A DNA stretch of 64,000 nt, from contig JAFGQU010000002.1 of assembly GCA_016935525.1 (NCBI GenBank), forward strand, positions 34,560-98,559. The letters are read 5' to 3'. This stretch comes from Candidatus Omnitrophota bacterium. GTDB lineage: Bacteria; Omnitrophota; Gorgyraeia; Duberdicusellales; 4484-171. The position numbers were made by a program, and so were the translations under genes. The notes under the pieces are model-generated. The model had not been told where the DNA came from. It did no database searches and saw only the letters and a list, made by a program, of their open reading frames with translations. The number at the start of each line of letters is the position of its first letter. The first letter of the stretch is position 1. This document shows positions 30,034-63,353 of this stretch, piece after piece.

Positions 30034-30046
30034 CGCTCTTTTTAGC

Positions 30047-36005: not shown

Positions 36006-36069
36006 TGATCTCTTCTTTTTTGGCCTATAGTTTTATCTTCTTTTCTATGTTCGGTCATTGCGCTCATTT

Positions 36070-37889: not shown

Positions 37890-37890
37890 A

Positions 37891-39216: not shown

Positions 39217-39264
39217 GCCCGTCCTATATCATTTCGGTCAAAAACAAAAAGAGAATACAGCGAT

Positions 39265-42755: not shown

Positions 42756-42765
42756 GTTCTCCTCC

Positions 42766-44163: not shown

Positions 44164-44202
44164 CGGGTCAAAGCCTCTTTCTCATCGTTCCCTCTCCCGT
44201 GT

Positions 44203-46586: not shown

Positions 46587-47646
46587 GAGATTTTACGATT
46601 TTTTTAAAATGACGATTGATAATACTCGATACACTCTGGGCCGATTCCAACGAGTAACAACTTTGCAGGCATGGATTTTTACAGGTTTTCGCCTGTATCC
46701 TTAGCCGGCGGGCCTGGGAAGATTCCCATCCTTTTTTAAGCGATATCTCGTCTAAATTGCCGCATATCCCGTGACAGGAATAGATGAGCGGCTGTTTTTT
46801 CGAATAACAGATAAATACGGTTTTTAATCCACCAAAACATCTCCACTGATTCTGGGTAAGTGTTCCGCGATAATAATCGACCATCAATTCCAAACGCGGT
46901 TCTTCGTATATACGGACATGGCGAGGACTGAATCTTCTTATCTTTTTGATCTCTTCGGCTAATCGCACAATGCTTCCCTGATCCAGCCAGAAATCCGAGG
47001 CTTTGTTATCCATAAAATTAGCGTTATCCTTTACTAACGGTTGAAAATTTATGGTATCCACTTTTAACTCATCAGCCAATTGTACCATATCCCCCAATTG
47101 ATGTACGTTTTTGTTCATGACCGTACACGCGATACCGATAGAAAAAGAACGGTTTTTTGATCTTTCGGCATTTAAAAGAGTGATCGCATCGAGTACTTTT
47201 TCAAAAACCCCCTCCCCCCGAAAGTAATCATTCATATCGCTCAACCCGTCTAATGAAAAATGGAAATGGTTTATTCCCGAATTCGCCACCTTATTGACGG
47301 TTTCTCTATTGATACCCGTTCCGTTAGTAGTGACGATAGAAAACATCTGATTATCACCGATGTACTTGAGTATCCGGTATATATCCTCACGCAAAAACGG
47401 TTCCCCCCCGGTAAGGAGTATTTCTTTGATCCCGTATCGCTTTGCCTCATCGATCACATGAAAAATCTGTTCGGTAGAGAGTTCTTCTTCCTTATCCAGA
47501 TGATGGGCGATACTGCACATTTTACAGTTCAGGTTACAGCGATAGGTAACTGATAGCTGCAATACCTGCGGTTTAGAAAAAGGATACGCCAATAACCTCG
47601 ATATCCAAAACAAAAAATCCCGAAAAAAAGCATCCATATTCCGCAC
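46576..47646 (-). CDS. radical SAM/SPASM-like protein
   Basis: RLLAYPFSKPQVLQLSVTYRCNLNCKMCSIA, LTGGEPFLRED; C-terminal WRCFGGLKTVFICYS...CKNPCLQSCYS. Confidence 0.8.
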   Translation of the reverse strand: MRNMDAFFRDFLFWISRLLAYPFSKPQVLQLSVTYRCNLNCKMCSIAHHLDKEEELSTEQIFHVIDEAKRYGIKEILLTGGEPFLREDIYRILKYIGDNQMFSIVTTNGTGINRETVNKVANSGINHFHFSLDGLSDMNDYFRGEGVFEKVLDAITLLNAERSKNRSFSIGIACTVMNKNVHQLGDMVQLADELKVDTINFQPLVKDNANFMDNKASDFWLDQGSIVRLAEEIKKIRRFSPRHVRIYEEPRLELMVDYYRGTLTQNQWRCFGGLKTVFICYSKKQPLIYSCHGICGNLDEISLKKGWESSQARRLRIQAKTCKNPCLQSCYSLESAQSVSSIINRHFKKIVKSHGS

Positions 47647-47654
47647 GTTATATC

Positions 47655-48689
47655 CTATTCTTCATAATTACAATTAAGTAAAAAATGGCACACGTCTTTA
47701 CAAGACGCTATTTCCCGGCGACGCTCCTGCGCGCTCGTTGAGAGATACAGTTCCCGGAAATCTTGCCGGACATTACCGATGGGTAGTTTATAGGGGCATA
47801 ACGCGATATCTCCGGCAGGAAATATAAAAATACCGAAATCAACCGCGTTACACGGCCCTTTTCTCTCTACGAACCCTTGAGGGTCTTTGAAGTATTTTTT
47901 ATACAAGGCCAATTGCGAAACGGGATTACAGATCTTATGGAATTTTTTCATTTTCAATTCGATAAGCTTATCCAGTACCGAATAGACCTGTTCGATATTT
48001 TGCGGCCAGATGGAACGAGCGGTCTTTTTCAAATACCACTGGTCGTTATGATTCTCGTTAAACGGTTGGGTCACCGCCTGAAAATTAATAAACTTTATAC
48101 TACTATGTTCTTGCGCCCACCGGGCCAAAGAGAGGATATCTTCGAGATTGCTTTCCATGATCGTCGCGGAAATACTGATATCGACTTCGGGAGCGACATA
48201 ATCAAGGCACTCGATAGCTTCAAACACACTTGATAAAGCACCGGTTTTACCGCGCAGATAGTCATGGGTACCGCTTTTAAGACTGTCTAAAGAAAGCATG
48301 ATCGAGTTCACTTTCGCGTCTTTTATTTTCAAAGCTATTTCCGTATCGATAAGATACCCGTTGGAATTCAATACCAATCGAAACCCAAGGCCGCGGATTA
48401 TTTTGATAAGGGGAAACAGATTTTCGTGAGTCAGCGGTTCCCCTCCGCCGATAGAAATATCGATCGGTTCGTGAATATATTCTTTAAAAGAAGAAAAAAA
48501 ACGCTCCCAATCATCAAGCGGCACCTTTGAGACACGCTGGGGTGTCTGCCAAAACTTACACATTTTACATCTCATAAAACAGTTATCGGTAAGATGCACA
48601 TAGCACATCTGCGGGTCTCTAAAATCAACTTTCCCGCAAGAACGGTTTTCCGCGGAAAAATTATCTTTTTTTTCTTGAGGTATTATCAT
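47655..48689 (-). CDS. radical SAM/SPASM-like protein
   Basis: HLTDNCFMRCKMCKFW, IGGGEPLTHEN; C-terminal CNAVDFGIFIF...CKDVCHFLLNCNY. Confidence 0.75.
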   Translation of the reverse strand: MIIPQEKKDNFSAENRSCGKVDFRDPQMCYVHLTDNCFMRCKMCKFWQTPQRVSKVPLDDWERFFSSFKEYIHEPIDISIGGGEPLTHENLFPLIKIIRGLGFRLVLNSNGYLIDTEIALKIKDAKVNSIMLSLDSLKSGTHDYLRGKTGALSSVFEAIECLDYVAPEVDISISATIMESNLEDILSLARWAQEHSSIKFINFQAVTQPFNENHNDQWYLKKTARSIWPQNIEQVYSVLDKLIELKMKKFHKICNPVSQLALYKKYFKDPQGFVERKGPCNAVDFGIFIFPAGDIALCPYKLPIGNVRQDFRELYLSTSAQERRREIASCKDVCHFLLNCNYEE

Positions 48690-48724
48690 ATCGACCTTTT
48701 ACCGGTCTCTTTTGGCAATGTTCT

Positions 48725-49726
48725 TTAAAAATAATGACAAAATTGTAAACAGGGATTTTTACATTTTTGGGCTTTCCTTCTCATCTGTCCGGCTTTAGAA
48801 GAATACCAGGCCTGACGTATACCCATCCGATACACATCGCCGCAACTATCCTGGCAAAAAAACACACAAGAACTCATCCGTCCATTACGTTTTTCTCCGG
48901 CAGTAATGATCATGCTTTTATACCCGGCAGCGCATTTCTTGTGAATGCTTTTAAGCGAATAGTAATCCTCAAGGAGGCCGGCGTCGGGATTCCAGTCAAT
49001 ACGAAGATTTTGATACTCATGAGTTAATATCATTTTAAAGTCGTCTTTAAGTCGCATCACGTCATCTTCCTGGGGCCACAAATCGCTTGCCTGAACGCCT
49101 TTAGGAGAATTCTGAGGATCGGTATTGCGCACCAGATACGGTATAAAATTCATCACGTTTACCCCTAACCTGTCGGCAGTGTTCGTCATTTCATACAACT
49201 GCCCGCAGTTGTTACGATAGATCACTGTGCCTACTCCGATCGATTTTACCGGATTAAGCTTCCGCAATAAGACGATGTTCTGCAGCAGACGATCATAGGC
49301 CCCCGCCCCTCTTAGTCGATCATGAGCATCTTTGTTCCCGTCAAAAGAGAAATGCACGTGATCGATAGAGGAAGCAGCGATTCTTTCAATCATCTCCCGG
49401 TTATAATACCCGTTCGTCGTCACCGAAACATCCATATTTCGCTTTTTGATATAGTCGGATATCTCGAATATCTCTTTTACCAAAAACGGTTCTCCGCCGC
49501 TTAATACCACCTGAGAGATCTTCATCTGGCAAGCTTGATCGATAATATCAAATATCTTCGCTACATCCACCGCGCCGCGGGGAGCATCTACCGGCTGTTT
49601 GATGCTGCAGATGCCACACTGTAGATTACATTGGTTGGTAAGCGAAAGAATCATCATCTGCGGCGGCAAAAGCGGCCTCCCCAGATACCGTGACAACCCG
49701 TACACCATCTTTTGAAAAAAAGTCAT
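48725..49726 (-). CDS. radical SAM/SPASM-like protein
   Basis: RYLGRPLLPPQMMILSLTNQCNLQCGICSIK, LSGGEPFLVKE; C-terminal CKNPCLQFCHYF. Confidence 0.8.
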   Translation of the reverse strand: MTFFQKMVYGLSRYLGRPLLPPQMMILSLTNQCNLQCGICSIKQPVDAPRGAVDVAKIFDIIDQACQMKISQVVLSGGEPFLVKEIFEISDYIKKRNMDVSVTTNGYYNREMIERIAASSIDHVHFSFDGNKDAHDRLRGAGAYDRLLQNIVLLRKLNPVKSIGVGTVIYRNNCGQLYEMTNTADRLGVNVMNFIPYLVRNTDPQNSPKGVQASDLWPQEDDVMRLKDDFKMILTHEYQNLRIDWNPDAGLLEDYYSLKSIHKKCAAGYKSMIITAGEKRNGRMSSCVFFCQDSCGDVYRMGIRQAWYSSKAGQMRRKAQKCKNPCLQFCHYF

Positions 49727-49728
49727 AG

Positions 49729-50889
49729 TTACTCCCGGTCCCGTTCTAACAAATATTGATTAAACTCATACGTCTCGCTGCGTAAAGGGCCACAGCATTC
49801 ATGACAGGCCTGGTGAATAAATTGTTTTTGCGATACTTTTTCTCTTAACTTGTTCATCTGGTCGCCCTGCCAGGCTTTTTGGTAAGAATCCCCTATTTTA
49901 CATAATTTGTCTTTGATCAGTGTGCAGGGAGAAAGGTACCCGTCTTCGGAAATCACCAGAGTTTTCCATACATGTATACAATAGAACGGCAGTTGAAGGA
50001 TCCCCTCTTTTTCCTCTCTCCCCGCATTTCTCTCCGGTTTCTTTCCATAATGAGCGAGAAAAAAATTGATATTATGTTTGATCCTCGTCTCATCCGCCTT
50101 TTGCCGCAACAACGAGACGCATTCCCGGGATTCCTCTTCGGTCAGCATCAGCTGTTCGGCGCGAGAATGGACGTTCATCAAAGGCATCAACTGGATCTCT
50201 TCTACTTTTTTTTCAATACAATAATCGATAAGCTCAAGGATCCGACGATAATTTTTCTTATGGACCACCGGGCAACAGATAATGTAAGGAGCCGTTTTAT
50301 CCGATGCCGTTTTTATATCGGCGAATTTCGTTAACGCATTGTCTATTTTCCGGAAATTACCCGGAACCCCCCGTATTTCATCATGGATTTCTCCGGAAGA
50401 AGAATCCAGGCTGATCCTCAACAGATCCCAACGTATATCGTGTAACGCGCCGATAAACGCCTCATCGAGCAGTAACCCGTTCGTAATAAGTATTCCTCTC
50501 ATATTACATTTTTTTATCTCCCTTAAGATCCCGATAATATTTTTATATAATAACGGTTCTCCGCCCCGCCCGCCGATATTCCATACTTCGGTCCCGTTAC
50601 GAGAAGATTCCCGCACAATACCCACAATGCGTTCATAAGGGACTGCCGGTTCAAACTGACGTTGCGAATCGGAATCGTATCCTCCGCAATATTGGCAACG
50701 GGAATTACATATATACGCAGGGAACCATTCGATCATGTATGGACTCTCTAATGAAGAGAATATCGAAGAATAGAGCCGGCCGTAAAGATCTCCGGAAGCG
50801 ACCGGCTCCTTTTGACTATGCCGATACAATATTTTATCGGCGATCTTGCGCAAAAATCCGGATTTTTTAGTACCTGTTTTTTGGTTCAT
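49729..50889 (-). CDS. radical SAM/SPASM-like protein
   Basis: YICNSRCQYCGG, GGRGGEPLLYKN; C-terminal CIHVWKTLV...CTLIKDKLCKIG...CHECCGP. Confidence 0.75.
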   Translation of the reverse strand: MNQKTGTKKSGFLRKIADKILYRHSQKEPVASGDLYGRLYSSIFSSLESPYMIEWFPAYICNSRCQYCGGYDSDSQRQFEPAVPYERIVGIVRESSRNGTEVWNIGGRGGEPLLYKNIIGILREIKKCNMRGILITNGLLLDEAFIGALHDIRWDLLRISLDSSSGEIHDEIRGVPGNFRKIDNALTKFADIKTASDKTAPYIICCPVVHKKNYRRILELIDYCIEKKVEEIQLMPLMNVHSRAEQLMLTEEESRECVSLLRQKADETRIKHNINFFLAHYGKKPERNAGREEKEGILQLPFYCIHVWKTLVISEDGYLSPCTLIKDKLCKIGDSYQKAWQGDQMNKLREKVSQKQFIHQACHECCGPLRSETYEFNQYLLERDRE

Positions 50890-51857
50890 ATTACGTCATA
50901 TATTTCCCGATAGGAATGTTTACTCAATAACACATGCATGCAATTCGAGCATATTTCTCGATAACGCGAGCGCATCTCGACATATTTTTGATTATTCCAG
51001 ATATCCTCAAATGAAGATTGAGTGATATTCCCCATCAGGTCGTTATTCATACAACATCCTAACACGTCGCCGTTGGGGAAAAGATAAAGATTCTTCCACA
51101 ATACCGGGCAATGCCAATCGGCCACTTTTTGTAACGTATTCACGACAGTAAGTGCGGGATGCATCTTTCGGAAGCGTTCCAAAGCGTCTAAAAAATCGAC
51201 GAACTCTCCGTAAGAAGGAAGGTATTCGTCTCTTAATTCTTCTTTGAGAAAAAGGACTTTTGTGTAAATCAGGTTTTTGCAGTGATACTTTGCCCCGACT
51301 TCAAACAGTCGCAATGAATCATCCAGGTTTTTTTTAGTCACTACCGCCGAAAGGTTCAGGTTGAATCCGTAGACATTCTTATATTCCCTCAATCTCTCCA
51401 GAGTCGGAACGATCTTTGAAAAAGGGTACCCCCTGGTCAACTCATTGGTCTTGGGCCCGTCTACGGATATGGTAATGCTCCGGGTACACGGCAACAGTTT
51501 AAATAATATCTTTTCATCGATATCTATCCCGTTGGTGGTAAGAAAAAATTCTATACCCAGAGGAGCCAGTATTTCAATCAATTCTCCCAGATAGGGATAA
51601 AGAAAAGGCTCTCCGGTCACGCTGAATTCCACATACTTTGCCCGGGTAAACAGAAAAATATTATTTTTTATCAATTCCAACGGCATGGTCCCATACTGAA
51701 AACTTTTTTTATTAAGGCCGTGTATTTCACAATACACGCAACGGGCGTTACAATTGTTATTGGTCTGAAGATTGATGATCGTGGGGTAAGACCGCAGGAC
51801 TGTTTTATGTTCACAATATTCCTGCTGATTGAGCTGGGCATTCACTCTACGATCCAT
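50886..51857 (-). CDS. radical SAM/SPASM-like protein
   Basis: TNNNCNARCVYCEI, VTGEPFLYPY; C-terminal WHCPVLWKNLYLFPNGDVLGCCMN...CSNCMHV. Confidence 0.75.
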   Translation of the reverse strand: MDRRVNAQLNQQEYCEHKTVLRSYPTIINLQTNNNCNARCVYCEIHGLNKKSFQYGTMPLELIKNNIFLFTRAKYVEFSVTGEPFLYPYLGELIEILAPLGIEFFLTTNGIDIDEKILFKLLPCTRSITISVDGPKTNELTRGYPFSKIVPTLERLREYKNVYGFNLNLSAVVTKKNLDDSLRLFEVGAKYHCKNLIYTKVLFLKEELRDEYLPSYGEFVDFLDALERFRKMHPALTVVNTLQKVADWHCPVLWKNLYLFPNGDVLGCCMNNDLMGNITQSSFEDIWNNQKYVEMRSRYREICSNCMHVLLSKHSYREIYDVI

Positions 51858-52818
51858 AATTTTCCTGATTGATATGGAGCCCCTGCAAACAAGGTTCCTT
51901 GCAGGTCTTTATTCGTTCCAGTTCGGCCTGATATTCTTCGGAATAGAAAATCTCCTTAAAATCATATGCGTACAGCGGCATCGGGACCTCTTTCCCGCAC
52001 AGATACGGTAATCCTTCACAGGTGATGTTCAGCGATTCGTATCCGGTAAGACATCGCCCGTTTTTTTCTAACACATTGGCGAAATAGTGCATATACGACC
52101 TGATTAAAGGTGCCGGACGGGTACTTATATATTCATGAGCTACCAGATAATCGATGATCTCTTTTAACTTTGCTTTCTCTTTTTCGGTAAGCCGGAATTT
52201 TTCCCGCACATAACATAATTCATTGTTGGGGATTACCGGCTGGACATCAAATCGCACCCCTTTAAATCTCTCAAACTCTTTAAGAAAATCCACAAAATGA
52301 GAAAAATTCTCCGGCATCAATATTGAACTTACCGTCAGGCTCGCGATCTTCTCGGCAAGAAAATATTCTTTATACACCCGCTCAAAATTGTGTACCGTCT
52401 TCTTAAACGTCCCGCCCCCTCTTATAAAATCATGGTCATATTGAAGGCCATCGATAGAAAAGATTATTCCTATTTTTTTCAATTCGTGTTCGTCAAATTG
52501 ATCCAAAAAAACTCCATCAAATAAAGTCCCGTTAGAAATGACATTGACGGTATTTATGTCGCATGCGCAGGTAAATTTCATAATGTGTCCAAGGTCGTCT
52601 CTTAAAAGCGGCTCTCCGCCGCCGAAGGTAATCCGCTGAATAGCACAGTTTCTTTCGAGATTTCCGATAATCTTGATCCACTCCTGGGAAGAGAGTTCCG
52701 ATTCCGCGCCATATTTCCCTTTACCGGTGGTACACATCAGGCATTGCAGGTTACAACGGTTGGTGATCGCGATATAAAATTCGCATATATTAAAATGTTT
52801 ATCTCTCATCTGGCTCAT
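51847..52818 (-). CDS. radical SAM/SPASM-like protein
   Basis: ITNRCNLQCLMCTT, FGGGEPLLRDD; C-terminal CLTGYESLNITCEGLPYLCGK...CKEPCLQG. Confidence 0.75.
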   Translation of the reverse strand: MSQMRDKHFNICEFYIAITNRCNLQCLMCTTGKGKYGAESELSSQEWIKIIGNLERNCAIQRITFGGGEPLLRDDLGHIMKFTCACDINTVNVISNGTLFDGVFLDQFDEHELKKIGIIFSIDGLQYDHDFIRGGGTFKKTVHNFERVYKEYFLAEKIASLTVSSILMPENFSHFVDFLKEFERFKGVRFDVQPVIPNNELCYVREKFRLTEKEKAKLKEIIDYLVAHEYISTRPAPLIRSYMHYFANVLEKNGRCLTGYESLNITCEGLPYLCGKEVPMPLYAYDFKEIFYSEEYQAELERIKTCKEPCLQGLHINQENYGS

Positions 52819-53863
52819 GACATCCTGCTTTTTTTTCTACACCATCACCTTCAAGATAATATTCCAATTCCTGATTCAACTGTTTTATCGGGCTGCAACA
52901 GGACTCATAACAATAAGGATATTCTCTTAAAAATTCGTATTCGCTTAAGATCCGGCCGTAGATCTTTTCTAAGTCGTCCCGGATGACGTTAAATTTTGTC
53001 TTTAAGGGGTCGCCGTTGCATTTAAGCACCTGCCCATCACAGTTGATTAAAAGTTTATACAGATGAAAATAACATATCTTCTTCAAGGGGCTGTGCTGGA
53101 CTGGTCGATGGGAATCCCTGCCGTCGGGGGCCTTTTCGATCCACTCTAACCGGTTAAACGTGACTTTGGTCTCGATTTCTGACAGTAGTGCGCGGAAAGA
53201 CTGCATCTCTTCATCATGAAGACTGAGCGCATCATACTGTTCATTCATCCTGACCAGTTTCAATAATGTAACATTCTTGGCGTTATATGAATCGACGATC
53301 CGAAAATAGTCTTTGACGTACGCATAATTCAATTTATTCACCACCATATTGAAATTGAGATGTACCCGCGGATTTTGTTCTGCCGAATAGCGCAGAAATC
53401 TATGAATCGCTTCCAAGTACTTTTGCTTACCCGGCATCGGCCGCAATTGATATTGGATATCGTCGGAGAAAGAATCGATCGAAACGATGATAATGTCCCA
53501 TCCGATCTCCTTTAAAAATTTCGCGAAATCTTCATCAAGCCGACTCCCGTTGGTCAAAAGCGTGCCAAAAAAACCTCTCTTTTTAATCTCGCCCATAAGG
53601 AATCTCAGGTTTTTAAATACCGTAGGCTCCCCGATCAAAGAAGTCAGCGAGATTTCTTTTACGCCTAAGGCCTGCGCCGAATCAAGAAGACGCAACAGGG
53701 TATCTTTTGACAACAGGTCTTTCGGTTTAGCGCTTATTTTCCCTGAACAATAAAGACAATCCAGATTACAAGAACTGCTTAATGCCAAGTCTAAGCAATA
53801 AGGCCCTTTAGGAGAACAGGTCAGATTATGTTGTACGCGGGCGAGAAAAGCTTGAGAGATCAT
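52799..53863 (-). CDS. radical SAM/SPASM-like protein
   Basis: LSSSCNLDCLYCSGK; C-terminal ICYFHLYKLLINCDGQVLKCNG...CYESCCSP. Confidence 0.7.
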   Translation of the reverse strand: MISQAFLARVQHNLTCSPKGPYCLDLALSSSCNLDCLYCSGKISAKPKDLLSKDTLLRLLDSAQALGVKEISLTSLIGEPTVFKNLRFLMGEIKKRGFFGTLLTNGSRLDEDFAKFLKEIGWDIIIVSIDSFSDDIQYQLRPMPGKQKYLEAIHRFLRYSAEQNPRVHLNFNMVVNKLNYAYVKDYFRIVDSYNAKNVTLLKLVRMNEQYDALSLHDEEMQSFRALLSEIETKVTFNRLEWIEKAPDGRDSHRPVQHSPLKKICYFHLYKLLINCDGQVLKCNGDPLKTKFNVIRDDLEKIYGRILSEYEFLREYPYCYESCCSPIKQLNQELEYYLEGDGVEKKAGCHEPDER

Positions 53864-53865
53864 TT

Positions 53866-56298
53866 TTAAATATTTTTATACATATAACAATCCTGAAAAC
53901 AGCGCACCTTACACTTTTTCGCTTTATCACGAAACGTACGGGCCTCCGGAGAATACCATATCTGTTTTAACGGACGGCTACTGATATTGCCTAACGTACT
54001 GCTGCATAGCCACACATCTCCATTCGCAGTGATGGATAATCGGTTATATCCGGCAAAACATTTCCAATTCACATACTTTTTAGAAAGCAGATAGTTGAGG
54101 TACGCCTGAGGATAAAAAAAGACGCAATTATGAAAACGGCAATAGCCTTCGATTTTCCCGATCTGATCAAATAATATTCCGGGATGTTCGATGTCGGCAA
54201 GCGGACTGTTGATGCCGGCGATCACGTTAGTATTATCATCGACTACGTTTAAAAGCTGGAATTTAGAATAAGGATACAACTGGTGCAGATATCTCACCAG
54301 TTGGTAAAGATCCTGATAATTATATCTCGTGATCAGGATATTAAAACATACTTCAAAACGGACACCTTTGTGCTGCACAAAGTCATATAGTTTTCTTAAA
54401 TTCTCGGTGACGCGGGCGAACGCCCCCGCTCCTCTTATCTCATCATGGGCCGAGGGAAACCCGTCCAGAGAGATATTCAACAGATCGAAAGAGACTGTTT
54501 CGGCAAGAAACCGGTCAAGAAGCATACCGTTAGAACTGAGGTGGAATGAACGACGGTCGTTTTTTACGGTCTCAGCGATCCGGGAAAAATCGGGATGCAG
54601 TAACGGCTCTCCTCCGGTAAGCTGAATGATCTTGTGCGGGTTTTTGAACTCATCGATTTGCTCCAGCAGATCGGTAAACATCGAAAAATCAAGATGCCCC
54701 ACGCATTTATTGGCTTGGCACATCGGACAACGGAGATTACAATGGTCAGTTATTTCGATCATAAAATACTGAGGCTCAACAAAAGGATGCCCGATAAGAC
54801 GGGAAAAAATAAATTTCATTTTTGCCGGATCGATCCTCTGTTTCACTTTTTTCCAACGGTTATAGTAAGATAAGCTCCTCAGAAAAATATTTTTTCCGTT
54901 TCTCTTTGGCGGAGAAAAAAAAGAAGCGAATTTGGCCAAAGAATTCAATAAGCCATAGTGTTTTTTACCGGCATTCTCAATATAGGTCTCAAGCAGGCGC
55001 AGATCCGATTCAAGATAATCTTTTTCCCTCGCGCTCAATCCTCCGATCCGTAGATTCTGCTCAAGAGACCTGATGAAATCATCGATATGCTCTTCGATCA
55101 AATGGTATCCGGCTACAAGGATCGGCCGCAACGGCAACTGGGGATACCGATGGATATATTCTTCCAGAAAATGCAGTTCCCGCATGAGTAAAAAAAAGTT
55201 ATTGTGTTCCATGAGCCGCTGATGGATCTCACTTAATGTATCTGCCGAAGGACGTATAGAACAGAATTGCACGCAATTTGCCTTGCAATTTTTTATGGTC
55301 TCCCGGAAAGACCGGGCCGCGAGGCCAGACCAAACTTCAAAGAGCGAATCTTTTTCGGCTAAACCGAAATGCTGGTCTTTTTCTTTATTGGGCCCATTAC
55401 ACACAAAACAGATCTTCTCTCCTACCGCCAGAGCCCGGCAAAAACCGGCATAACATTTATCAACATAAATCTCGCTGGAAAAATATGTATAGATCTTTTC
55501 GTGAGGGACTTCGATATGGACCCAGGTATGGAAGTTACGCTCTTTTATCTTATCAAGCGTATCTTTAAGCAAAGGCAACCGCTCAGGCGGGATCCAAAAC
55601 CTATCTTCACGACGCCCTTTTAAATCGCTGTTACACACATAGGGTTGAATATGGATACCACAGACATTATACTTTTCACAGAAATCGATCATCTCATACA
55701 TGGTATCCAGGGTCTGGTCCATCAACACCGAACAGGTATCGACCAGAGGATATTTGGTGTTACGGCGTTGTTTTTCAACGTTGATATATTCGAGAGCGTC
55801 AATAATTTTTTCAAACACCCCTGCTCCTCGCAAAGAATCATGAATCTCCTTCTTCGGAGAATCAATGGATATCCCTAATGTCTCCAGCCCCGAATCAAAT
55901 AATCTATTGATTGTTTTATGATCCAGCAGAGTACCGTTGGTATTCACATGCGTACGCACATGAGGGTAGTAGTCGCGGACATATTTTATGAGACTAAAAA
56001 TGTCCGGCCGCAGCAGCGCTTCGCCTCCGGTGAAATACACTTCTTTAAGATTCCCTAAACGATACGCATCGTCAATGAGTTTTTTCACATAAAAAGTATC
56101 TATCTCTTTTTCTTTCACTCGCCAGACACCGCACATCGCACACTGCAAATTACATCTTGTGGTGAGGATCAACTGCAGCATATGCGGGCCGATCAGGGGA
56201 ATATTGAGGGCGAGAGAAAAATTATAGAGATAATCTTCTTTTATCGAATCGAAAAATACAAGTTGCTCGTTGATATTATCCAGACAATAATGAAACAT
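53866..56298 (-). CDS. tandem double radical SAM/SPASM-like protein (two complete rSAM modules in one 810-aa polypeptide)
   Basis: Module 1 has LTTRCNLQCAMCGVW (aa 46-60), FTGGEALLRPD and CKANCVQFCSI. A ~140-aa helical linker follows. Module 2 has ITDHCNLRCPMCQAN (aa 516-530), LTGGEPLLHPD and CKVRCFQDCYM. There is no in-frame stop between them. Confidence 0.8.
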   Translation of the reverse strand: MFHYCLDNINEQLVFFDSIKEDYLYNFSLALNIPLIGPHMLQLILTTRCNLQCAMCGVWRVKEKEIDTFYVKKLIDDAYRLGNLKEVYFTGGEALLRPDIFSLIKYVRDYYPHVRTHVNTNGTLLDHKTINRLFDSGLETLGISIDSPKKEIHDSLRGAGVFEKIIDALEYINVEKQRRNTKYPLVDTCSVLMDQTLDTMYEMIDFCEKYNVCGIHIQPYVCNSDLKGRREDRFWIPPERLPLLKDTLDKIKERNFHTWVHIEVPHEKIYTYFSSEIYVDKCYAGFCRALAVGEKICFVCNGPNKEKDQHFGLAEKDSLFEVWSGLAARSFRETIKNCKANCVQFCSIRPSADTLSEIHQRLMEHNNFFLLMRELHFLEEYIHRYPQLPLRPILVAGYHLIEEHIDDFIRSLEQNLRIGGLSAREKDYLESDLRLLETYIENAGKKHYGLLNSLAKFASFFSPPKRNGKNIFLRSLSYYNRWKKVKQRIDPAKMKFIFSRLIGHPFVEPQYFMIEITDHCNLRCPMCQANKCVGHLDFSMFTDLLEQIDEFKNPHKIIQLTGGEPLLHPDFSRIAETVKNDRRSFHLSSNGMLLDRFLAETVSFDLLNISLDGFPSAHDEIRGAGAFARVTENLRKLYDFVQHKGVRFEVCFNILITRYNYQDLYQLVRYLHQLYPYSKFQLLNVVDDNTNVIAGINSPLADIEHPGILFDQIGKIEGYCRFHNCVFFYPQAYLNYLLSKKYVNWKCFAGYNRLSITANGDVWLCSSTLGNISSRPLKQIWYSPEARTFRDKAKKCKVRCFQDCYMYKNI

Positions 56299-56348
56299 AT
56301 TTGTATATCTAAAAAATTTTCTTCACCCTCGGGCTCTTTAGGCTTACG

Positions 56349-58295
56349 TTACACGATACATTCTACCTTTATTTCTCCCGAGGTTTTCCGAGGATCACAA
56401 AAACAAGGTAAAAGACAAGGCCAGGGACACCGGGCAGCCTGGTTGTAAGCATGTATCCTGGCTGCCCCGTCAAGTATATCTCTTAACGACTGCTTTTTTA
56501 TATCGCCATAAAAAGAGAAACAAGTCGCACTTTTACCTTCATTCGCAATAAGCATCGTCTTTTGAGCCGACTTACAGCGGACATCGGTACCGCGCAGCTG
56601 ACGACGATAATATTTTTTCATTAAAAGCAGGTTCTCTTCCGAATTGCAAATGAAATCTTTATAGCGCTTTTTCGTTTGGATCAGCAGATCAACGGTTTTA
56701 TCCAGTAACGGCAGTTGATCCGGAGTGACCCAGAACGGAGACTGCCTCCGGTCAGCCATTCTCAAATTATTCGGCAGAAGCGCTTGAAATTGCAACGAAT
56801 TTACCTTTAATTCATAGAGAAAAGGGATTAACTGCGGCAATTCTTTTAGATTTGCTCCGCAGATAATACTGATTACATTAAACCGGACCTGGGCGCGGCG
56901 GCTTTTAAGCGCTGCCAGCAAACGCAGACTTTCTACCGTATGTTCCCAGGCGCAAGGCGAGTTCCGCATATAATTATGGATTCGGGGAGTAATCGAGTCG
57001 AGAGAGATTATTAAAGATATCGTCTCGTCGGTCAGATAGGGTTCTAAACGAGAAAACATTTCTTTTACGGCCAGACCATTACTTAATACGCCTATCTTTT
57101 TCAGGCCGAGGTGTCGGGCATGATCGAATATTTCCGGAATATCTTTCCTCAAAAGAGGTTCTCCACCGGAAAGGGTAATTTCTTTAATCCCGAGCCGGCG
57201 CGCTTCACGTAAGACTTTTTTTACATACCTCAACTCCAAGTCAGACTCCTCTTTGGCGGTTTTCCAGATGTCACATATCCGACAGGAAAGGTTACAACGA
57301 TGAGTGATGTCCAATATCAAGAGTTGCGGCGGCGGCAGCAGTTGTGGTGTAATTGTCTTATTTTTCTTTACTCTCAGGTACTCGGCAATATTACCCAGTA
57401 TATATACCGCCTTATGGATGCTCAGGCAGATGTACATCGACAGTTTTTTATTGATATTTTTGATCTGTTCTTTACAAATAAGTTTTCTTGCCAATATATA
57501 CACAAAACGGGGAATTTTAAGGATATTGAACGCGGTAGCCCGCCAAAAAGAAAATGTTCCCGGATCAAGCTCTTTCAATAAAGGATGGTCACGGTGGAGA
57601 TATTGGACCAAAAAGTTTCCGCGACCATAGATATAGGCTTGTCGAATAAAACTAAAAAAAGTCTCATCCCGGTCATGGACCACAATAATATCCTGATCCC
57701 AGAGAAACCTCTTACCATTTTTAAAAAGACGCCAGAAAAATTCCAGGTCTTCCCCTCCGGGAAAAGGAAAATGTTCATTAAACCGGGCCTGCTCAAATAC
57801 CTCTTTTTTAAAAGAGACATTGCAGGTGGGGAAGAATATCGCTTGCATTCCTTGACCTATTTTCACTTCAATACTGCACGTACTTAAAAACTGCCCCACC
57901 ATTACATAGCTTCTCTGCTGCGCGGGCAGAGTATCGCCTCCGATGGCCGCAATACCGGGATTATTTCCGTGGGCGGTGACCATTTTTCCTGCCCAATCCC
58001 GCCGGCAGATACAATCATCATCAACAAACCCGATAAGTCGTCCCCGGGCTTGATGTATGCCGAGATTTCTTGCTGCCGCCGGGCCCCGGTGATGTTGCGA
58101 GAAATAGCGCACCTGCGTAAATTCTTTAGCAAAATCCGAAATCAGTTGTTCGACCCGACAGTCGGAGGCATCATCAACAACGATAATCTCAAAATGTTCC
58201 TGAGGATAGTCCTGACCAAGCAAAGCATTAATACAATTTTTGAGCTTTTCTATCCGTTTATATGTGGGGACAATGATCGAAATGATGATATTCAT
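56349..58295 (-). CDS. family 2 glycosyltransferase fused to a C-terminal radical SAM/SPASM-like domain
   Basis: N-terminal IISIIVPTYKRIEKLKNCINALLGQDYPQEHFEIIVVDDASD and FVDDDC (GT2 DxD). A hydrophobic linker follows. The C-terminus has ITHRCNLSCRICDIW, LSGGEPLLRKD and RCPWPCLLPCFC. Start set at MNIIIS (58295), which has AAGGAG 6 nt upstream. Confidence 0.8.
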   Translation of the reverse strand: MNIIISIIVPTYKRIEKLKNCINALLGQDYPQEHFEIIVVDDASDCRVEQLISDFAKEFTQVRYFSQHHRGPAAARNLGIHQARGRLIGFVDDDCICRRDWAGKMVTAHGNNPGIAAIGGDTLPAQQRSYVMVGQFLSTCSIEVKIGQGMQAIFFPTCNVSFKKEVFEQARFNEHFPFPGGEDLEFFWRLFKNGKRFLWDQDIIVVHDRDETFFSFIRQAYIYGRGNFLVQYLHRDHPLLKELDPGTFSFWRATAFNILKIPRFVYILARKLICKEQIKNINKKLSMYICLSIHKAVYILGNIAEYLRVKKNKTITPQLLPPPQLLILDITHRCNLSCRICDIWKTAKEESDLELRYVKKVLREARRLGIKEITLSGGEPLLRKDIPEIFDHARHLGLKKIGVLSNGLAVKEMFSRLEPYLTDETISLIISLDSITPRIHNYMRNSPCAWEHTVESLRLLAALKSRRAQVRFNVISIICGANLKELPQLIPFLYELKVNSLQFQALLPNNLRMADRRQSPFWVTPDQLPLLDKTVDLLIQTKKRYKDFICNSEENLLLMKKYYRRQLRGTDVRCKSAQKTMLIANEGKSATCFSFYGDIKKQSLRDILDGAARIHAYNQAARCPWPCLLPCFCDPRKTSGEIKVECIV

Positions 58296-58387
58296 TGTTG
58301 TCTCCTTACACAGCAAACAGCTGAAAACACCTGTCTTCGCAGAATAAAAAAATAAGGGATTTTTCGTCTCTTTTAAAGAATCCGTTA

Positions 58388-58416
58388 ATTATACCACCCC
58401 TTAAAAGAAGTAACAA
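58388..58416 (-). promoter_or_regulatory. putative sigma70-like promoter (extended -10) in the only sizeable gap of the cluster
   Basis: On the minus strand: TTGTTA (plus 58411-58416), 17-nt spacer, TGgTATAAT (plus -10 at 58388-58393). It lies 93 nt upstream of the GT2-rSAM start. Confidence 0.3.
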
Positions 58417-58493
58417 CTCAAGGACCTTTTAGTCTTTTTATTGCCTTTTCCCTCAATACCTTTTGCCTCAAGGGACTTCCGTTTCTGGATACA

Positions 58494-61223
58494 TCATTCA
58501 TCAATGACAATATTCCCTTCACAAAGGAGGTATTGCCCGAGCTCATTGAATTTCTGCCCTTCTTCATTAAACCGCAAAATCCTTCCACGATGATAAAGAT
58601 CGGAATTTACTATACAAAACTTTCCCAAAGAAGACGTGAGGGACGAAGAAACCTTTATCGGAGGGAAGTGCTGCCGCCGGGGGCCGTTGACACGAGTAAC
58701 CCCTGATTGAAGATGGTCATATTCTCTGTTGTCTACACAAGCGATGATATCCCATTCATCATCGATTTCTCCACGAAAATCGGGAAAAATCCCCATCCGT
58801 GTGCCGAGATCCCATGTATCATATTCTTCTGAAAGCATAAGATTAGCCTGGATCCGGTCAAAAGCCACCGGCTTATCGATAAAAAGATATATTTGAAAAA
58901 TAATATTATTACTGTTTTCCAATCTCAAACGCCACAATTGCCGCAAAGGTAAAGGCGACCAGTCACCTTCACACATAAGACCTTCAGAGTCCTTTTTTAA
59001 GGTCCAGCGGGCATACGCACAAGAATCGTACCATCTTCCCTGTAATCGCAATGAAGAATAAAATCCTAACTTTTTTGTTAATTTCTGCCCCTGCCAATAG
59101 ATCTGACCCGCGCCTCCTTCAAATATGAACTTCAGGTCTTGCTGCTGTAACGTCCCCGAAGGACCAGTTTCCGACGGAGGAGTATGGCCCGGGAAACAGA
59201 CCGATACGTTAAAATCCTGTTCTTGTTCAACCGATGATGCGCACACGGATTCACCCATGCGATAGAAATTTATCACCCGTTTTTTCCGATAGCGATCACC
59301 GTTAAAGATCTTCGCAAAAGTATCTTTCCCGGCTACGTTCTCCAAATGGACAGGCAGGTATTCTTTTTGCCGGCTATAAAGTCCTATCGACCCTTGAGAA
59401 ATACACCGCTGAAGCACATCTACTTCAAAATCACAAAATTCCTCAGGGAACGCTTTCCTCCCGTAATCAGTCTGGAATTGTTGATAGGTATCGGAAAAAT
59501 AGAATCGTAAATCCTGTTCCTGAATGCGTATCTGACGAGGATTTTCTGTTTTTACCTTCAAGGAAAACGAATCCTTACCGGTCAATTCGATACGCCAGCG
59601 CTGGCGTATCGATAGATCCGGCCAATCACCGATAGCGATAATCCTTCCCTGAGCATCTTTTTCTACTTTCCAAAAAGCACGGGATGAATAATATTCTCTT
59701 GTTTCTACAGTCAGAAAAGAGTTTATTTTACCTACCATGATTTTCTGAAAAGAATTTATAAAGATCGAACATTCCCCCTGGGTAAATACTATCTGCATAT
59801 CCTGATTGTTGAGGATCGAATGTTCATAGGTATTTTTAAGATATGCGTCTGCCTTATCTTTTCCGACGATGATTTTTCCTGAAAAAAACAGCGCCCTTTG
59901 AGCCTGAGTATGCGAATAGTTATGGATATGCGCCAGTTTATATTGGGCTACCCGGCAGCGCAGAGAATAGTCGGTATTATAGATCTGGCTGGTCGCTACC
60001 GGGGTAGCATCATTTTGCGTAACAAGACAAGCCGGGACGGGATTATCGCCTGGCGATGATCCCGGATATACCGCGATGCATTGATGTTCCGAATGCCAGT
60101 TCAATAACGGACGCCAGTTTTTATCTTCAAGGGAAATATCAGGAAACTTTTTACCGTCAAAAGGGGTCCGCCAGCACACATATTCTTCGCTCAACATTAC
60201 ATTAAAATATCCTTCATCCAGATCGATAGTCTGGGCGCTTTCTATTTCAATATCGATATGGATCGCCTCATCCCGGTCAATCCATATATTCCAGACCTGG
60301 GTCAGATCCAACCGCAGCAATTCTCCGCCGGCAATGATTCTTTCGTCATCCTGGCTTACAATATGCCAGTCCCCCTGGGTGGAAGCCGACCATGTATCCT
60401 GCTGATGCATGACCGTATAAACCCCTTCATGAGGAGTAAGTAATGTCTCCCGGTGATATATAAAAAGTTTCCCGTTATTGAAAATAATCTTTACATCTCC
60501 CTTCTCGAAGACGGCGATACCTTGTTTTTCTCCGATCATCTTAGAATAAAGCGGAATGATCTTCTTTCTCGATCCGTCGGCGACTAACCTTCCGTTCTTA
60601 AGAAAAATCACCCGGTCACAAAGCTTAGAAAGTATACTCATGTCATGGGTTACAAAAAACATGGTTTTCCCGGACTCTTTGAGCTCGATGATCTTCTTTA
60701 TGCATTTCCTTTGAAAATATTCGTCGCCCACCGAAAGGGTATCATCGATAAGTACGATCTCCGCCGGAATATGTACCGCCAGAGAAAAAGCCAAGCGGAC
60801 GAACATCCCTTGAGAATAAGATCTAATCGGCGCATCGATGAACCGCCCTAAATCGGCAAAGGCGACAATGACATCATAAAGTCTGCCGATTTTTTCCTGT
60901 GATAAACCGTACAAACCGGCAATAGTAAGGATATTCTGATGTCCGGTCATCTCGGTTTCAAATCCCGCGCCAAATTCCAATAGCCCGGTCACTTTCCCGG
61001 TTACGTATATAGTACCCCTATCGGGGACCAACATGCCGGCAATGACTTTCAAAAGCGTCGATTTCCCTGAGCCGTTCTCACCGATCACCCCGACGGTCTC
61101 TCCGGGAATGACCGAGAAACTAATATCCCGCAATGCCCAAAAGTTTTCCCAGATGATTTTGGACCCCTTAATAAACTTCACCTTATACATTTCCCAGATA
61201 TTATTCGCGCGGATTATTTCCAT
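58494..61223 (-). CDS. ABC transporter ATP-binding protein of the Wzt/TagH polysaccharide-exporter type with ~650-aa repeated C-terminal extension
   Basis: Walker A GENGSGKST, signature YSQGMFVRLAFS, Walker B EIVLIDDTLSVGDE. The start is reset to MEIIRANN (61223), just after the permease stop. The C-terminal region holds three copies plus a truncated fourth of a ~125-aa module; each copy has GDW...L...W and two copies end in MLSEEY..W. Confidence 0.75.
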   Translation of the reverse strand: MEIIRANNIWEMYKVKFIKGSKIIWENFWALRDISFSVIPGETVGVIGENGSGKSTLLKVIAGMLVPDRGTIYVTGKVTGLLEFGAGFETEMTGHQNILTIAGLYGLSQEKIGRLYDVIVAFADLGRFIDAPIRSYSQGMFVRLAFSLAVHIPAEIVLIDDTLSVGDEYFQRKCIKKIIELKESGKTMFFVTHDMSILSKLCDRVIFLKNGRLVADGSRKKIIPLYSKMIGEKQGIAVFEKGDVKIIFNNGKLFIYHRETLLTPHEGVYTVMHQQDTWSASTQGDWHIVSQDDERIIAGGELLRLDLTQVWNIWIDRDEAIHIDIEIESAQTIDLDEGYFNVMLSEEYVCWRTPFDGKKFPDISLEDKNWRPLLNWHSEHQCIAVYPGSSPGDNPVPACLVTQNDATPVATSQIYNTDYSLRCRVAQYKLAHIHNYSHTQAQRALFFSGKIIVGKDKADAYLKNTYEHSILNNQDMQIVFTQGECSIFINSFQKIMVGKINSFLTVETREYYSSRAFWKVEKDAQGRIIAIGDWPDLSIRQRWRIELTGKDSFSLKVKTENPRQIRIQEQDLRFYFSDTYQQFQTDYGRKAFPEEFCDFEVDVLQRCISQGSIGLYSRQKEYLPVHLENVAGKDTFAKIFNGDRYRKKRVINFYRMGESVCASSVEQEQDFNVSVCFPGHTPPSETGPSGTLQQQDLKFIFEGGAGQIYWQGQKLTKKLGFYSSLRLQGRWYDSCAYARWTLKKDSEGLMCEGDWSPLPLRQLWRLRLENSNNIIFQIYLFIDKPVAFDRIQANLMLSEEYDTWDLGTRMGIFPDFRGEIDDEWDIIACVDNREYDHLQSGVTRVNGPRRQHFPPIKVSSSLTSSLGKFCIVNSDLYHRGRILRFNEEGQKFNELGQYLLCEGNIVIDE

Positions 61224-61230
61224 TCTATTC

Positions 61231-62013
61231 TTATAGTTCTTTGAGAAAATATTTCTTTCTGGAAAGAAAAAAAAGATACCCCGCTCCGAATGTGACCAGC
61301 CCCAGGAAAATCGCAACACCCCACAGATGAGCACCGGGAAATTGTCCGAACAAAAGGATATCGCGATATATACGGATATAAAAAACCATGGCATTACAAT
61401 TATACATCCATCGAACTGGATCGGGGACCATATCGATCGAATAGAATATCGGCGTGATCCAAAACCAGAATAACAATATTGTCCCCAAAAGGTGAGAAAG
61501 GTCTCTCACAAACACGTTCACGCAGGCGACCACAAGGCCAAGTCCGGCTACGAAAAACAGATGGGCCAGAAGGACCAACGGCAACCCGAGTAAAGTTTTG
61601 GTTACCTGTATATTAAACAGACAGAATATCGGGATAATAAAAATAAGCCCAAAGACAAAATTGATGAAATTCGCACATACTACCGAAAGCGGGATAAATT
61701 CCACGGGAAGATTATACTGACGTAAAAGCTGCGCTTTTTGGATTATTGATACTGAAGATTCCGATAACGATACTGAGAAGAAAAACCAGGGGAGCAAACC
61801 GGCTAATGAAAACAAAGAAAAATTCTCAATATTTACTTTTATGATCTTGGTAAAGATAAACGTCACGGTCGCCATGATCAGCAAAGGAGTGACTACCGAC
61901 CACCATACCCCTAACAGCGAACCGATATACTTGGTCTTCAGTTCTTTTTTTATCAGACTCCACAAAATATGTCTCTGCGAGATCAATACGTTCATACCTA
62001 CCGGAGTGGTCAT
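61231..62013 (-). CDS. ABC-2 type transporter permease (Wzm/TagG-like)
   Basis: 260 aa and six predicted TM helices. The N-terminal cytoplasmic KKELKTKYIGSLLGVWWSVVTPL block is typical of ABC-2 permeases. It overlaps the upstream gene by 4 nt and precedes the ATPase. Confidence 0.7.
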   Translation of the reverse strand: MTTPVGMNVLISQRHILWSLIKKELKTKYIGSLLGVWWSVVTPLLIMATVTFIFTKIIKVNIENFSLFSLAGLLPWFFFSVSLSESSVSIIQKAQLLRQYNLPVEFIPLSVVCANFINFVFGLIFIIPIFCLFNIQVTKTLLGLPLVLLAHLFFVAGLGLVVACVNVFVRDLSHLLGTILLFWFWITPIFYSIDMVPDPVRWMYNCNAMVFYIRIYRDILLFGQFPGAHLWGVAIFLGLVTFGAGYLFFLSRKKYFLKEL

Positions 62014-63353
62014 CGATGCGCCAATAAAGCTGCCGTACGTTCGGCTTCCAAAATCACATCTTCCATCGACATATATTGCCAGCCGCCAAAACGCCCCACC
62101 GGGAAGATATGGTAGGCATGTAAGTATTTCAAAATATTACTCCTGGCGGTTTTCCACTCGAAATCATAAAGAGGATACGCAAAGGGTATATCGTTTACAT
62201 GGATTGTCTCGATCGCGTGCGGCGAAGAGATGATCTTCGCTTTCATTAAATCGTCTATCGCCTGCTTTTCTATTTTCTTATCCAGAGGCTTCCCTTTAGA
62301 ATATGAGACTTCCACATAGAGCGATCTCTTTCCCGGAGGGACCAAAGAAGGAGAAAACCGGTCAAAACATCCCACTCGAAAGAAAGAATGCGCGTGTTCC
62401 GGAAAATACATCCAATGATGATCAAAATTGACCGGTTGAGCAAGCCCTAAATTTATATTATATATCGAAGTCCACCTTAATTTTTTAAAGTCATCACGGA
62501 CCGTATCGGGTAACCCGGCGATTACGTTCGCCAAAAGGGGCAACGGCATAGTAGAAACCAGCCGGTCATACTGCTGGGAGGACCCGTGAGAAAACCAGAT
62601 ACGTCTTGTGACCGGATCGATTCTCACGACTTCATGTTCGGTATGCATAGATTGATTACCGCGGGTAAAAGACTTGATCAACTGCTCAATCCCTCCGGAA
62701 GAAGGGTACCAGAAAAAAGAATGGTAACCTAACCTTCTTTTTTCTTCTCTTTGAATCCGGGCCCGGACTTGCCTGAGGGTAGGTACGACGATAAAATCAT
62801 TCACCCACTCACAGGAAAGTTCTTCTAAAGAAACCGTCCAGAATTTTTCATTATAAGGTTTCATGAAGTATTCGGTGATCGCCCGGCCGAAATGACAATG
62901 ACTCCATTGAGCAAAATTCTCCGGATGATCGCTCGGTATTCTCTTTTTTGCTTGAATAAAGCCTTCAAGACACGCAGCACGTACCTGTGGCGGCAACCCA
63001 TGGAGATTTGCCTGAAAAGGATAACGGATATGTGTATTGAATATAGAGACCGAAGCATCGCGTCGATGGCGGGTCAGATCCTTCCCCATAAGAGAATGAA
63101 GTAACGTGAATACTTCCGGACGTCTAAAATGCAGTAAATGGCCGCAATAATCAAACGTATACCCGTTGATATGCGTGGAACGACAAAGCCCGCCTATATT
63201 TTTTTCTTTTTCATATACTGGCGCGGTAATACCGGATCCTCTCAAGAAAAAGGCAGTCGCAATCCCGGAGAGACCCGCGCCAATAATGATGATTTTTCCA
63301 CCCGGAAGGGAATCCTGGGCGCGATGGATTAAGGAATGCGTCTCTGTGGACAT
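62010..63353 (-). CDS. FAD-dependent oxidoreductase of the UDP-galactopyranose mutase / amine-oxidase fold (Glf-like)
   Basis: KIIIIGAGLSGIATAFFL Rossmann GxGxxG, EKEKNIGGLCRS and GHLLHF blocks resemble UDP-galactopyranose mutase; 447 aa. Confidence 0.5.
   Translation of the reverse strand: MSTETHSLIHRAQDSLPGGKIIIIGAGLSGIATAFFLRGSGITAPVYEKEKNIGGLCRSTHINGYTFDYCGHLLHFRRPEVFTLLHSLMGKDLTRHRRDASVSIFNTHIRYPFQANLHGLPPQVRAACLEGFIQAKKRIPSDHPENFAQWSHCHFGRAITEYFMKPYNEKFWTVSLEELSCEWVNDFIVVPTLRQVRARIQREEKRRLGYHSFFWYPSSGGIEQLIKSFTRGNQSMHTEHEVVRIDPVTRRIWFSHGSSQQYDRLVSTMPLPLLANVIAGLPDTVRDDFKKLRWTSIYNINLGLAQPVNFDHHWMYFPEHAHSFFRVGCFDRFSPSLVPPGKRSLYVEVSYSKGKPLDKKIEKQAIDDLMKAKIISSPHAIETIHVNDIPFAYPLYDFEWKTARSNILKYLHAYHIFPVGRFGGWQYMSMEDVILEAERTAALLAHR

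Follow-up and report, generated by a model that had tools for sequence, protein, structure and literature searches.

Two radical S-adenosylmethionine (SAM) domains in a single chain are known from FbiC (FO synthase), which unites CofG and CofH, separate proteins in other organisms, and whose domains act on one intermediate of the pathway by means of two separate 5'-deoxyadenosyl radicals (PMC11917521). In the thuricin CD cluster, the two radical SAM/SPASM enzymes TrnC and TrnD associate in a tight and obligate complex that works on the same substrates, both enzymes being active and only one of the activities essential (PMC12093266). We have analyzed a stretch of 64,000 nucleotides from a Candidatus Omnitrophota bacterium (assembly GCA_016935525.1, contig JAFGQU010000002.1, positions 34,560 to 98,559 of the forward strand), here called the window, in whose numbering the coordinates are given. 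At 53866-56298, on the minus strand, an uninterrupted open reading frame (ORF) encodes a protein of 810 amino acids (aa) with one radical SAM module in each half. Our analysis indicates, with moderate confidence, that this protein arose by a recent end-to-start fusion of adjacent paralogues, that both of its modules are catalytic, and that it works within a series of radical SAM enzymes whose substrate would most likely be a glycan.

The likeness to FbiC is an architectural analogy: two radical SAM domains share one chain and the orthologues are split elsewhere, in our case at two of the ten loci compared with the window (L004 and L005, among L001-L010). FbiC is an old and widespread fusion, whereas the 810 aa protein rests on one base and one genome. 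To our knowledge, the FbiC domains have no SPASM or Twitch auxiliary domains. Of the 74 NCBIfam families with a match, the 25 best include neither FbiC nor CofG or CofH, which gives no sign of specific homology; the nearest families there were W_rSAM_matur, NirJ, MoaA and AhbD. The TrnC/TrnD pair illustrates the kind of association that the fusions in the Omnitrophota operon imply, although those are separate proteins with peptide substrates and a known precursor, while the present modules share a covalent chain and lack any evident precursor peptide. Each module resembles the SPASM/Twitch enzymes (anSME, BlsE, DesII, MoaA, SkfB, SuiB) in having a partial TIM-barrel core that carries CX3CX2C and, after it, a C-terminal auxiliary-cluster domain rich in Cys. 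The differences from those of solved structure are the low identity (15-20%) and an auxiliary motif of five Cys instead of seven. The family of the first module has in addition an extra N-terminal helix and a helical C-terminal extension of ~100-130 aa that SPASM/Twitch enzymes do not have.

Two radical SAM modules in one open reading frame

The stop codon of the frame is at 53866-53868. Its product is 100% identical to MBN2482664.1 (NCBI, 'radical SAM protein', from a Candidatus Omnitrophica metagenome-assembled genome, MAG), and the identical 810 aa sequence is on record from a Logan assembly too. We refer to the two halves and their relatives as the N and C families. Alignment A1 contains the 810 aa protein and 17 N-family homologues, alignment A3 the C-family orthologues and two paralogues from the window, and an AlphaFold2 (AF2) model was built on A1. 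The parts of the gene are as follows.

56188..56298, minus strand: N-family-specific helix at the N-terminus, aa 1-37 (invariant columns of A1; AF2 helix at aa 9-31)
55474..56187, minus strand: radical SAM core of module 1, aa 38-275 (PF04055 stretch at aa 44-206, 89 bits; motifs; 17 homologues)
55243..55473, minus strand: auxiliary Fe-S subdomain of module 1, SPASM/Twitch-like, aa 276-352 (A1; SPASM score below cutoff, 13.5 bits)
54853..55242, minus strand: N-family helical extension and tail at the C-terminus, aa 353-482 (A1; AF2 helices at aa 355-458; no Pfam match)
54847..54852, minus strand: A6 homopolymer (T6 on the plus strand), codons 483-484, KK (junction DNA; ends of homologues)
54820..54846, minus strand: translated spacer VKQRIDPAK, nine residues, aa 485-493 (sequence)
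53869..54819, minus strand: module 2, a complete radical SAM/SPASM enzyme, aa 494-810 (standalone orthologues; Pfam; A3)

A preliminary description of this DNA had reported in each half a CX3CX2C motif, a GGE(A/P)LL loop and a C-terminal CK..C.Q.C cluster, and all of them are there. The first reads CNLQCAMC at aa 49-56 (window 56131-56154) and CNLRCPMC at aa 520-527 (54718-54741), the second GGEALL (GGE at aa 91-93) and GGEPLL (GGE at aa 562-564, GGEP at aa 562-565), and the third CKANCVQFC (aa 338-346) and CKVRCFQDC (aa 796-804). Pfam finds Radical_SAM (PF04055) in two stretches of the protein. When the halves are scored one at a time, they both exceed the gathering threshold of 29.5 bits, N with 89.0 and C with 73.2 bits. 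For SPASM (PF13186, threshold 21.5 bits) the C half passes with 46.5 bits and the N half stays below with 13.5 bits.

A canonical SPASM domain has seven Cys, CX9-15GX4C...CX2CX5CX3C...C, and binds two auxiliary [4Fe-4S] clusters. Neither half fits this motif. They share instead the pattern C-X17-C...C-X3-C-X3-C, with five conserved Cys each, which was likewise visible in a MAFFT alignment (A2) that put C-family proteins onto the N half; A1 was taken for the AF2 model instead. Judging by the residues, five Cys should be enough for one fully Cys-ligated auxiliary cluster, in an arrangement that appears Twitch-like or a reduced version of SPASM. The description of both halves as complete radical SAM/SPASM modules holds for the radical SAM cores and the five auxiliary Cys, which are intact, with the qualification that the N half is under the Pfam SPASM threshold and the seven-Cys motif is missing from both.

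Neither half's orthologues (A1, A3) show any change in the three Cys of its radical SAM cluster. The invariant residues of the module 1 core in A1 are C49, C53, C56, G91-E93, N119-G122, S144, D146 and S147, and its auxiliary subdomain has exactly five invariant Cys (C282, C300, C338, C342, C346). The corresponding set in A3 comprises C520/C524/C527, GGEP and C747/C765/C796/C800/C804, these last five at window 53887-54060, together with G69/G70/E71, N97/G98 and S117/D119 in the numbering of the alignment. Both modules keep the SAM-binding residues, with GGE, TNG/SNG and SxD(S/G) invariant in each.

Separate neighbouring genes in relatives

The N family is small and made up of proteins of 446-515 aa with 51-62% identity to the N half. 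For the C half we found three standalone orthologues.

P0030: 322 aa, 58% identity, 100% coverage of aa 494-810
P0031: 298 aa, 59% identity, 94% coverage
P0032: 330 aa, 47% identity, 98% coverage

A further search for C-module orthologues in metagenome contigs, by back-translated patterns that were too generic, returned 80 loci, all of them paralogues with at most 38% identity. Among the loci compared, the C gene is an accessory member of the operon, present only in the window, L004 and L005. In these last two, N and C are separate adjacent genes in the same order, which answers the question of the preliminary description whether orthologues are split. The N gene of L004 (GCA_041643015.1) is at 5016-6356 and its C gene starts at 6349, with an overlap of ATGAATAA; in L005 the N gene is at 4206-5753 and the C gene at 5732-6724. 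The L004 C gene has probably been annotated with a start placed too far downstream (MIEITDH...; region 6349-6427); its conserved N-terminus (MNKKLVKSKFILSRF...) begins at an ATG overlapping the N gene's stop (ATGAATAA). From these comparisons the 810 aa protein appears to be a fusion of two different adjacent genes and not the product of an internal duplication.

The region between the modules had been described as a helical linker of ~140 aa. The model does predict helix for aa 355-445, but aa 447-505 have a predicted local distance difference test (pLDDT) value below 50, and the region is a native domain of the N family. The helical C-terminal extension is kept in every standalone homologue of 446-515 aa (A1), with I358, R361, L370, E374, L378, Y385, P386 and L388 invariant. 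Since the standalone members all carry it, the so-called linker did not evolve for joining the modules and consists of the N family's own C-terminal extension plus nine residues of read-through spacer. The opposite end of the N family is also conserved, with Y23, L24, N26, F27, S28, P34, I36, G37 and P38 invariant in A1. We also considered whether the family's basic tail forms an amphipathic helix for membrane targeting and rejected this (hydrophobic moment of the tail 0.32-0.85, not above the N-module background, mean 0.59 and maximum 0.77).

A single base at the junction

The junction DNA reads TGG AAA AAA GTG AAA CAG AGG ATC GAT CCG GCA AAA ATG, the last codon being the ancestral ATG (M494) at which module 2 begins. 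If the A6 run at 54847-54852 is shortened to A5, it reads TGG AAA AAG TGA (WKK-stop) and yields an N protein of 484 aa, beyond which a 23-nt spacer leads to the ATG of a 317 aa ORF. The standalone N proteins of 483-487 aa end in '...Y..KK(G)', aligned exactly with YYNRWKK at aa 478-484 of the window protein (A1), and within the spacer, 14 nt upstream of ATG 494, there is a Shine-Dalgarno-like AGAGGA. The fusion hinges on a single A in a homopolymer run. In the mechanism that we propose, an extra A in this run would have removed the TGA of the N gene and brought the C gene in frame, with translation of the nine spacer residues.

The most serious alternative is an artefact, in which the true sequence is A5 and the organism makes separate N (484 aa) and C (317 aa) proteins as at L004 and L005. 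The preliminary description had pointed to a stop gained or lost at ~54830-55250 as the weak spot; the frame is uninterrupted as given, but a single base does decide the whole fusion. The A5 version stops exactly where the homologues end and leaves AGAGGA and an ATG behind it, the other C-family genes with known context are split, and the fused product comes from a single organism. On the other side, the window contains 228 homopolymer runs of at least 6 bases, 11 of them in the gene for the double enzyme, and no gene is visibly broken by them: despite the runs, the window is tiled by intact, normal-length ORFs, among them rpoD, dnaG, gatA, gatB, smc, pckG and purC. Furthermore, the same 810 aa product is found in NCBI and in the Logan re-assembly, and the N module is joined to other neighbours in independent data (P0018, from JGI and ENA on three contigs, P0006, P0016 and L008). 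A search of JGI metagenome contigs for the exact flanks of the A-run in the same strain gave 0 matches. Because the window is intact despite its runs, the product occurs in two sources and equivalent fusions exist elsewhere, we consider a very young but real fusion likely and the artefact unlikely.

Recurrent fusion and fission of operon neighbours

The N module is found joined to whichever gene follows and, once, to the preceding gene. The fusions detected are listed below, with w followed by a number for other genes of the window.

N + C: this window, 810 aa
N + w52799-like: P0018 in L007 (3 contigs; JGI and ENA), 773 aa; P0016, 776 aa
N + w49729-like: P0006 in L006, 834 aa (the two genes in between are missing from this locus)
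B12-radical SAM + N: L008, 991 aa
w52799 + w51847: L008, 666 aa
w49729 + w48725: L008, 694 aa
56349-58316, minus strand, window: GT2 + radical SAM fusion, 655 aa (GT2 at aa 13-126 and beyond, radical SAM at aa 337-497)

Neighbours in the operon have thus fused in at least six combinations besides N + C, and in at least seven in all with the GT2-radical SAM protein included. This last one stays fused in L001-L006 and corresponds to two genes in L008 (6396-7343 and 7261-8301). Along 8432-15603 of L008 (CAZAYU010000006.1, from a MAG labelled 'uncultured Planctomycetia') there are three double radical SAM proteins in succession, so that this operon is almost wholly pairwise fused. Because there are at least seven different neighbour fusions, GT2-radical SAM included, a physical association between the enzymes is suggested. 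By this Rosetta-stone reasoning, the covalent tether of the 810 aa protein would only make permanent an association already present between operon neighbours.

The preliminary description had also called a tethered pair of radical SAM modules unusual. We scanned all 1.84 billion cluster representatives (50% identity) with HMMER and inspected the best 150 matches. Two or more CX3CX2C+GGE cores were present in 30 of these 150, and five metagenomic relatives (P0161, P0205, P0207, P0217 and P0224, of 928-1444 aa) had three Radical_SAM stretches per chain according to Pfam. In P0205 a GT2 domain sits between the radical SAM modules. Such tethering is rare among characterised enzymes, where FbiC is a precedent (PMC11917521), and the word unusual is right in that respect, but with a fifth of the closest representatives multi-core, and some triple, it is common in this uncharacterised branch.

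Predicted structure and catalysis

The AF2 model had a mean pLDDT of 75, with most of module 1 at 80-96, most of module 2 at 75-90 and the helical extension at 80-94 up to about aa 410. A Foldseek comparison with the PDB gave DesII, SkfB, SuiB, CteB, BlsE (TM-target 0.69), anSME, viperin, MoaA and PqqE, the best E values being 1e-9 to 1e-12. By sequence, the nearest solved relatives were BlsE and MoaA, then viperin-like enzymes and GDGT-MAS (E 1e-6 to 1e-8). BlsE, DesII, viperin and MoaA act on sugars or nucleotides. The top NCBIfam model for the 810 aa protein, and for several of its paralogues in the window, was TIGR04317 (tungsten cofactor oxidoreductase radical SAM maturase). We rejected membership of this family, the score of 206.1 bits, summed over both modules, being far below the cutoff of 380 and no aldehyde:ferredoxin oxidoreductase gene being nearby.

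Because all the expected cluster- and SAM-binding residues are kept, both modules are probably capable of radical generation. Each would bind SAM, a radical SAM [4Fe-4S] cluster of its own and one or more auxiliary clusters, and make the 5'-deoxyadenosyl radical; we infer that both are catalytic. They would act on one substrate or on consecutive intermediates, as would the other members of the operon. Two sequential radical steps on one substrate, the first of the roles suggested in the preliminary description, are plausible, given that the two genes are adjacent in relatives, that neighbour fusions recur and that both modules are intact.

The second role suggested there was that of a non-catalytic scaffold for one of the modules; the sequence lends this no support, no motif being lost in either half. 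As an alternative this means that the fusion is real and that one module, or its radical chemistry, is dispensable, serving as a scaffold or presenting the substrate to its partner. There is a precedent in the non-fused TrnC/TrnD pair, with its single essential activity (PMC12093266), and the N family carries extra N- and C-terminal helical parts with no assigned role. However, the cluster Cys and the SAM-binding motifs are invariant in both families, standalone orthologues included, and the fusion is too recent for either half to have degenerated. We therefore give a scaffold little credence and retain two catalytic modules as the better description.

An operon of radical SAM enzymes next to an exporter

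The double enzyme belongs to a co-directional cluster whose transcription starts with an oxidoreductase and an exporter. These features are given here; the GT2-radical SAM gene, the double enzyme and a run of radical SAM genes follow, in this order.

27810..63353, minus strand: co-directional cluster (domain scans; synteny with L001-L010)
62010-63353, minus strand: flavin adenine dinucleotide (FAD) oxidoreductase
61231-62013, minus strand: ABC-2 permease (PF01061, 66 bits)
58494-61394, minus strand: Wzt/TagH-like ATPase (ABC_tran; best NCBIfam NF010065, TagH, 184.6 bits, and Wzt/RfbE, all below cutoff)

Besides the double enzyme and the GT2-radical SAM gene there are 13 radical SAM genes of the SPASM/Twitch type and 3 B12-radical SAM genes. 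Genes for a methyltransferase, a TPR protein and an AsnB-like amidotransferase lie scattered among these, as do two GT2 genes. The window contains 20 radical SAM modules in 19 genes, with 19 of the modules in the co-directional ~30 kb of 28531-58316. The gene order ABC-2, Wzt, GT2-radical SAM, (B12-radical SAM), N, (C), w52799, w51847, w49729, w48725, w46576, w45324, w40485, w39265 is conserved in L001-L007, L009 and L010, and the conserved Omnitrophota operon amounts to about 12 core radical SAM genes plus several accessory ones.

This arrangement is like that of Wzm/Wzt and TagGH export loci, in which GT2 glycosyltransferases neighbour an ABC-2 permease and a C-terminally extended ATPase. 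Wzt ATPases carry a single C-terminal domain, whereas the last 667 aa of the window ATPase are three repeats of about 210 aa, all-beta in AF2 (pLDDT 82.6) and with no Pfam match. The best high-probability folds for them were galactose-mutarotase-like supersandwiches (LacZ domain 5, a GalM homologue and galactosaminidases). The listed start of the ATPase is probably over-extended, its homologues aligning from M58 (window 61223). No initiating phosphoglycosyltransferase was identified in the window. In the literature we found no characterised Wzm/Wzt-type locus with a dozen or more radical SAM genes, and nothing relevant that links Omnitrophota or Omnitrophica to such a cluster, or radical SAM enzymes to Wzt-type loci.

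The exporter, the GT2, AsnB and methyltransferase genes, the SGNH genes found inside the operon in L004 and L008, the sugar-binding-like C-terminus of the ATPase, and the presence of the sugar- and nucleotide-acting BlsE, DesII, viperin and MoaA among the nearest solved relatives of the modules all point to a glycan or its precursor as the leading candidate for the substrate, to which we give a probability close to even or slightly less; a peptide or a lipid is possible. The operon enzymes would then be a physically associated series for successive radical tailoring of one exported polymer, or of its precursor, most probably a glycan.

Another view is that this is an operon for a ribosomally synthesised and post-translationally modified peptide (RiPP), in which both modules would cross-link or epimerise a precursor peptide. 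SPASM/Twitch enzymes together with B12-radical SAM methylases are typical of RiPP clusters, SkfB, SuiB, CteB and anSME are among the fold neighbours, and there were weak NCBIfam matches to sactipeptide and WgkB-type maturases. However, no PqqD/RRE domain (PF05402) was present in any radical SAM protein of the window. In the intergenic gaps no plausible precursor was found, the candidates being a 114 aa protein with two transmembrane segments (42411-42755) and an implausible ORF of 45 aa, though small ORFs may have escaped this search. In addition, the conserved partners are the Wzm/Wzt-type exporter, GT2, AsnB, SGNH and GT1, and not peptidases or leader-processing transporters, which makes a RiPP improbable.

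The radical SAM proteins of the window are divergent paralogues (22-35% identity), and the best match in it is w44203 for the N half (30%) and w48725 for the C half (29%). An internal tandem duplication of one radical SAM/SPASM gene, which the same layout of motifs in both halves (CX3CX2C, GGE, C-X17-C...C-X3-C-X3-C) might evoke, can be ruled out, since the halves are not each other's closest paralogues, each has its own family of standalone orthologues (47-62% identity) and these are separate adjacent genes at L004 and L005.

Returning to the fusion of two neighbouring enzymes within a glycan-tailoring operon, several observations weigh against it. A single-base indel error in the homopolymer is the less likely but possible origin of the junction, and the fused N + C form is on record for one organism only. 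As far as the model and the sequence indicate, the junction seems to bear no sign of adaptation, with its nine-residue spacer and predicted disorder at aa 447-505, and for this reason the fusion may be neutral or even mildly deleterious instead of functional. All the NCBIfam matches of the 810 aa protein are far under the families' own cutoffs. SkfB, SuiB, CteB and anSME modify peptides, so that a peptide substrate is possible, and the fold similarities detected for the C-terminus of the ATPase are weak (E about 1e-3 to 1e-4, with low TM scores).

A broader interpretation, which we put forward only tentatively, is that of a 'radical SAM assembly line': a dozen or more SPASM/Twitch and B12-radical SAM paralogues, physically associated with each other, might in a long series of radical steps tailor or join through C-C bonds one exported surface polymer, which the Wzt-type ATPase would recognise by its triple, sugar-binding-like C-terminus. 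If so, and this is equally speculative, the 810 aa protein would be one freshly formed covalent link. We know of no characterised pathway with so many radical SAM enzymes acting on a glycan, nor of cultured representatives of the phylum Omnitrophota.

In itself the double enzyme is of modest interest, being a one-nucleotide read-through with frequent multi-core relatives. More novel is the cluster to which it belongs, conserved but undescribed, in which ~30 kb hold 19 radical SAM modules, coupled to an exporter of the polysaccharide type. The repeated fusion and fission of neighbours provides Rosetta-stone evidence on which enzymes cooperate, and the natural fused and split pairs offer a test set for ordered radical SAM complexes and a guide to a new radical-tailored surface polymer.

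Other features of the window

Four B12-binding radical SAM genes are found in the window (330-1802, 28531-30033, 36070-37419 and 42766-44163). The first is 33% identical to w42766 and adjoins a GDSL/SGNH hydrolase-like gene (1768-2835), the pair occupying 330-2835 on the minus strand. Because SGNH genes sit inside the L004 and L008 operons, this satellite pair may be part of the same system. The 114 aa ORF at 42411-42755 (minus strand) has two predicted hydrophobic helices and a coiled-coil-like tail, and is located between the methyltransferase and a B12-radical SAM gene.

Outside the conserved operon there are possible low-potential electron donors for the radical SAM enzymes: an EtfB/EtfA pair (22176-24181, minus strand), in which the N-terminus of EtfA is fused to a ferredoxin-type 2x[4Fe-4S] domain, and a flavodoxin-like protein with a dicluster ferredoxin (4596-5420, minus strand). 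A bactofilin domain with a C-terminal HTH_17 is encoded at 6058-6549 (minus strand), with a second small HTH_17 protein just downstream (5753-6079). Two tRNA genes were found, tRNA-Met (CAT) at 5493-5566 and tRNA-Leu (GAG) at 27130-27213 (minus strand), the latter just downstream of the last gene of the radical SAM cluster (GT2, 27810-28565).

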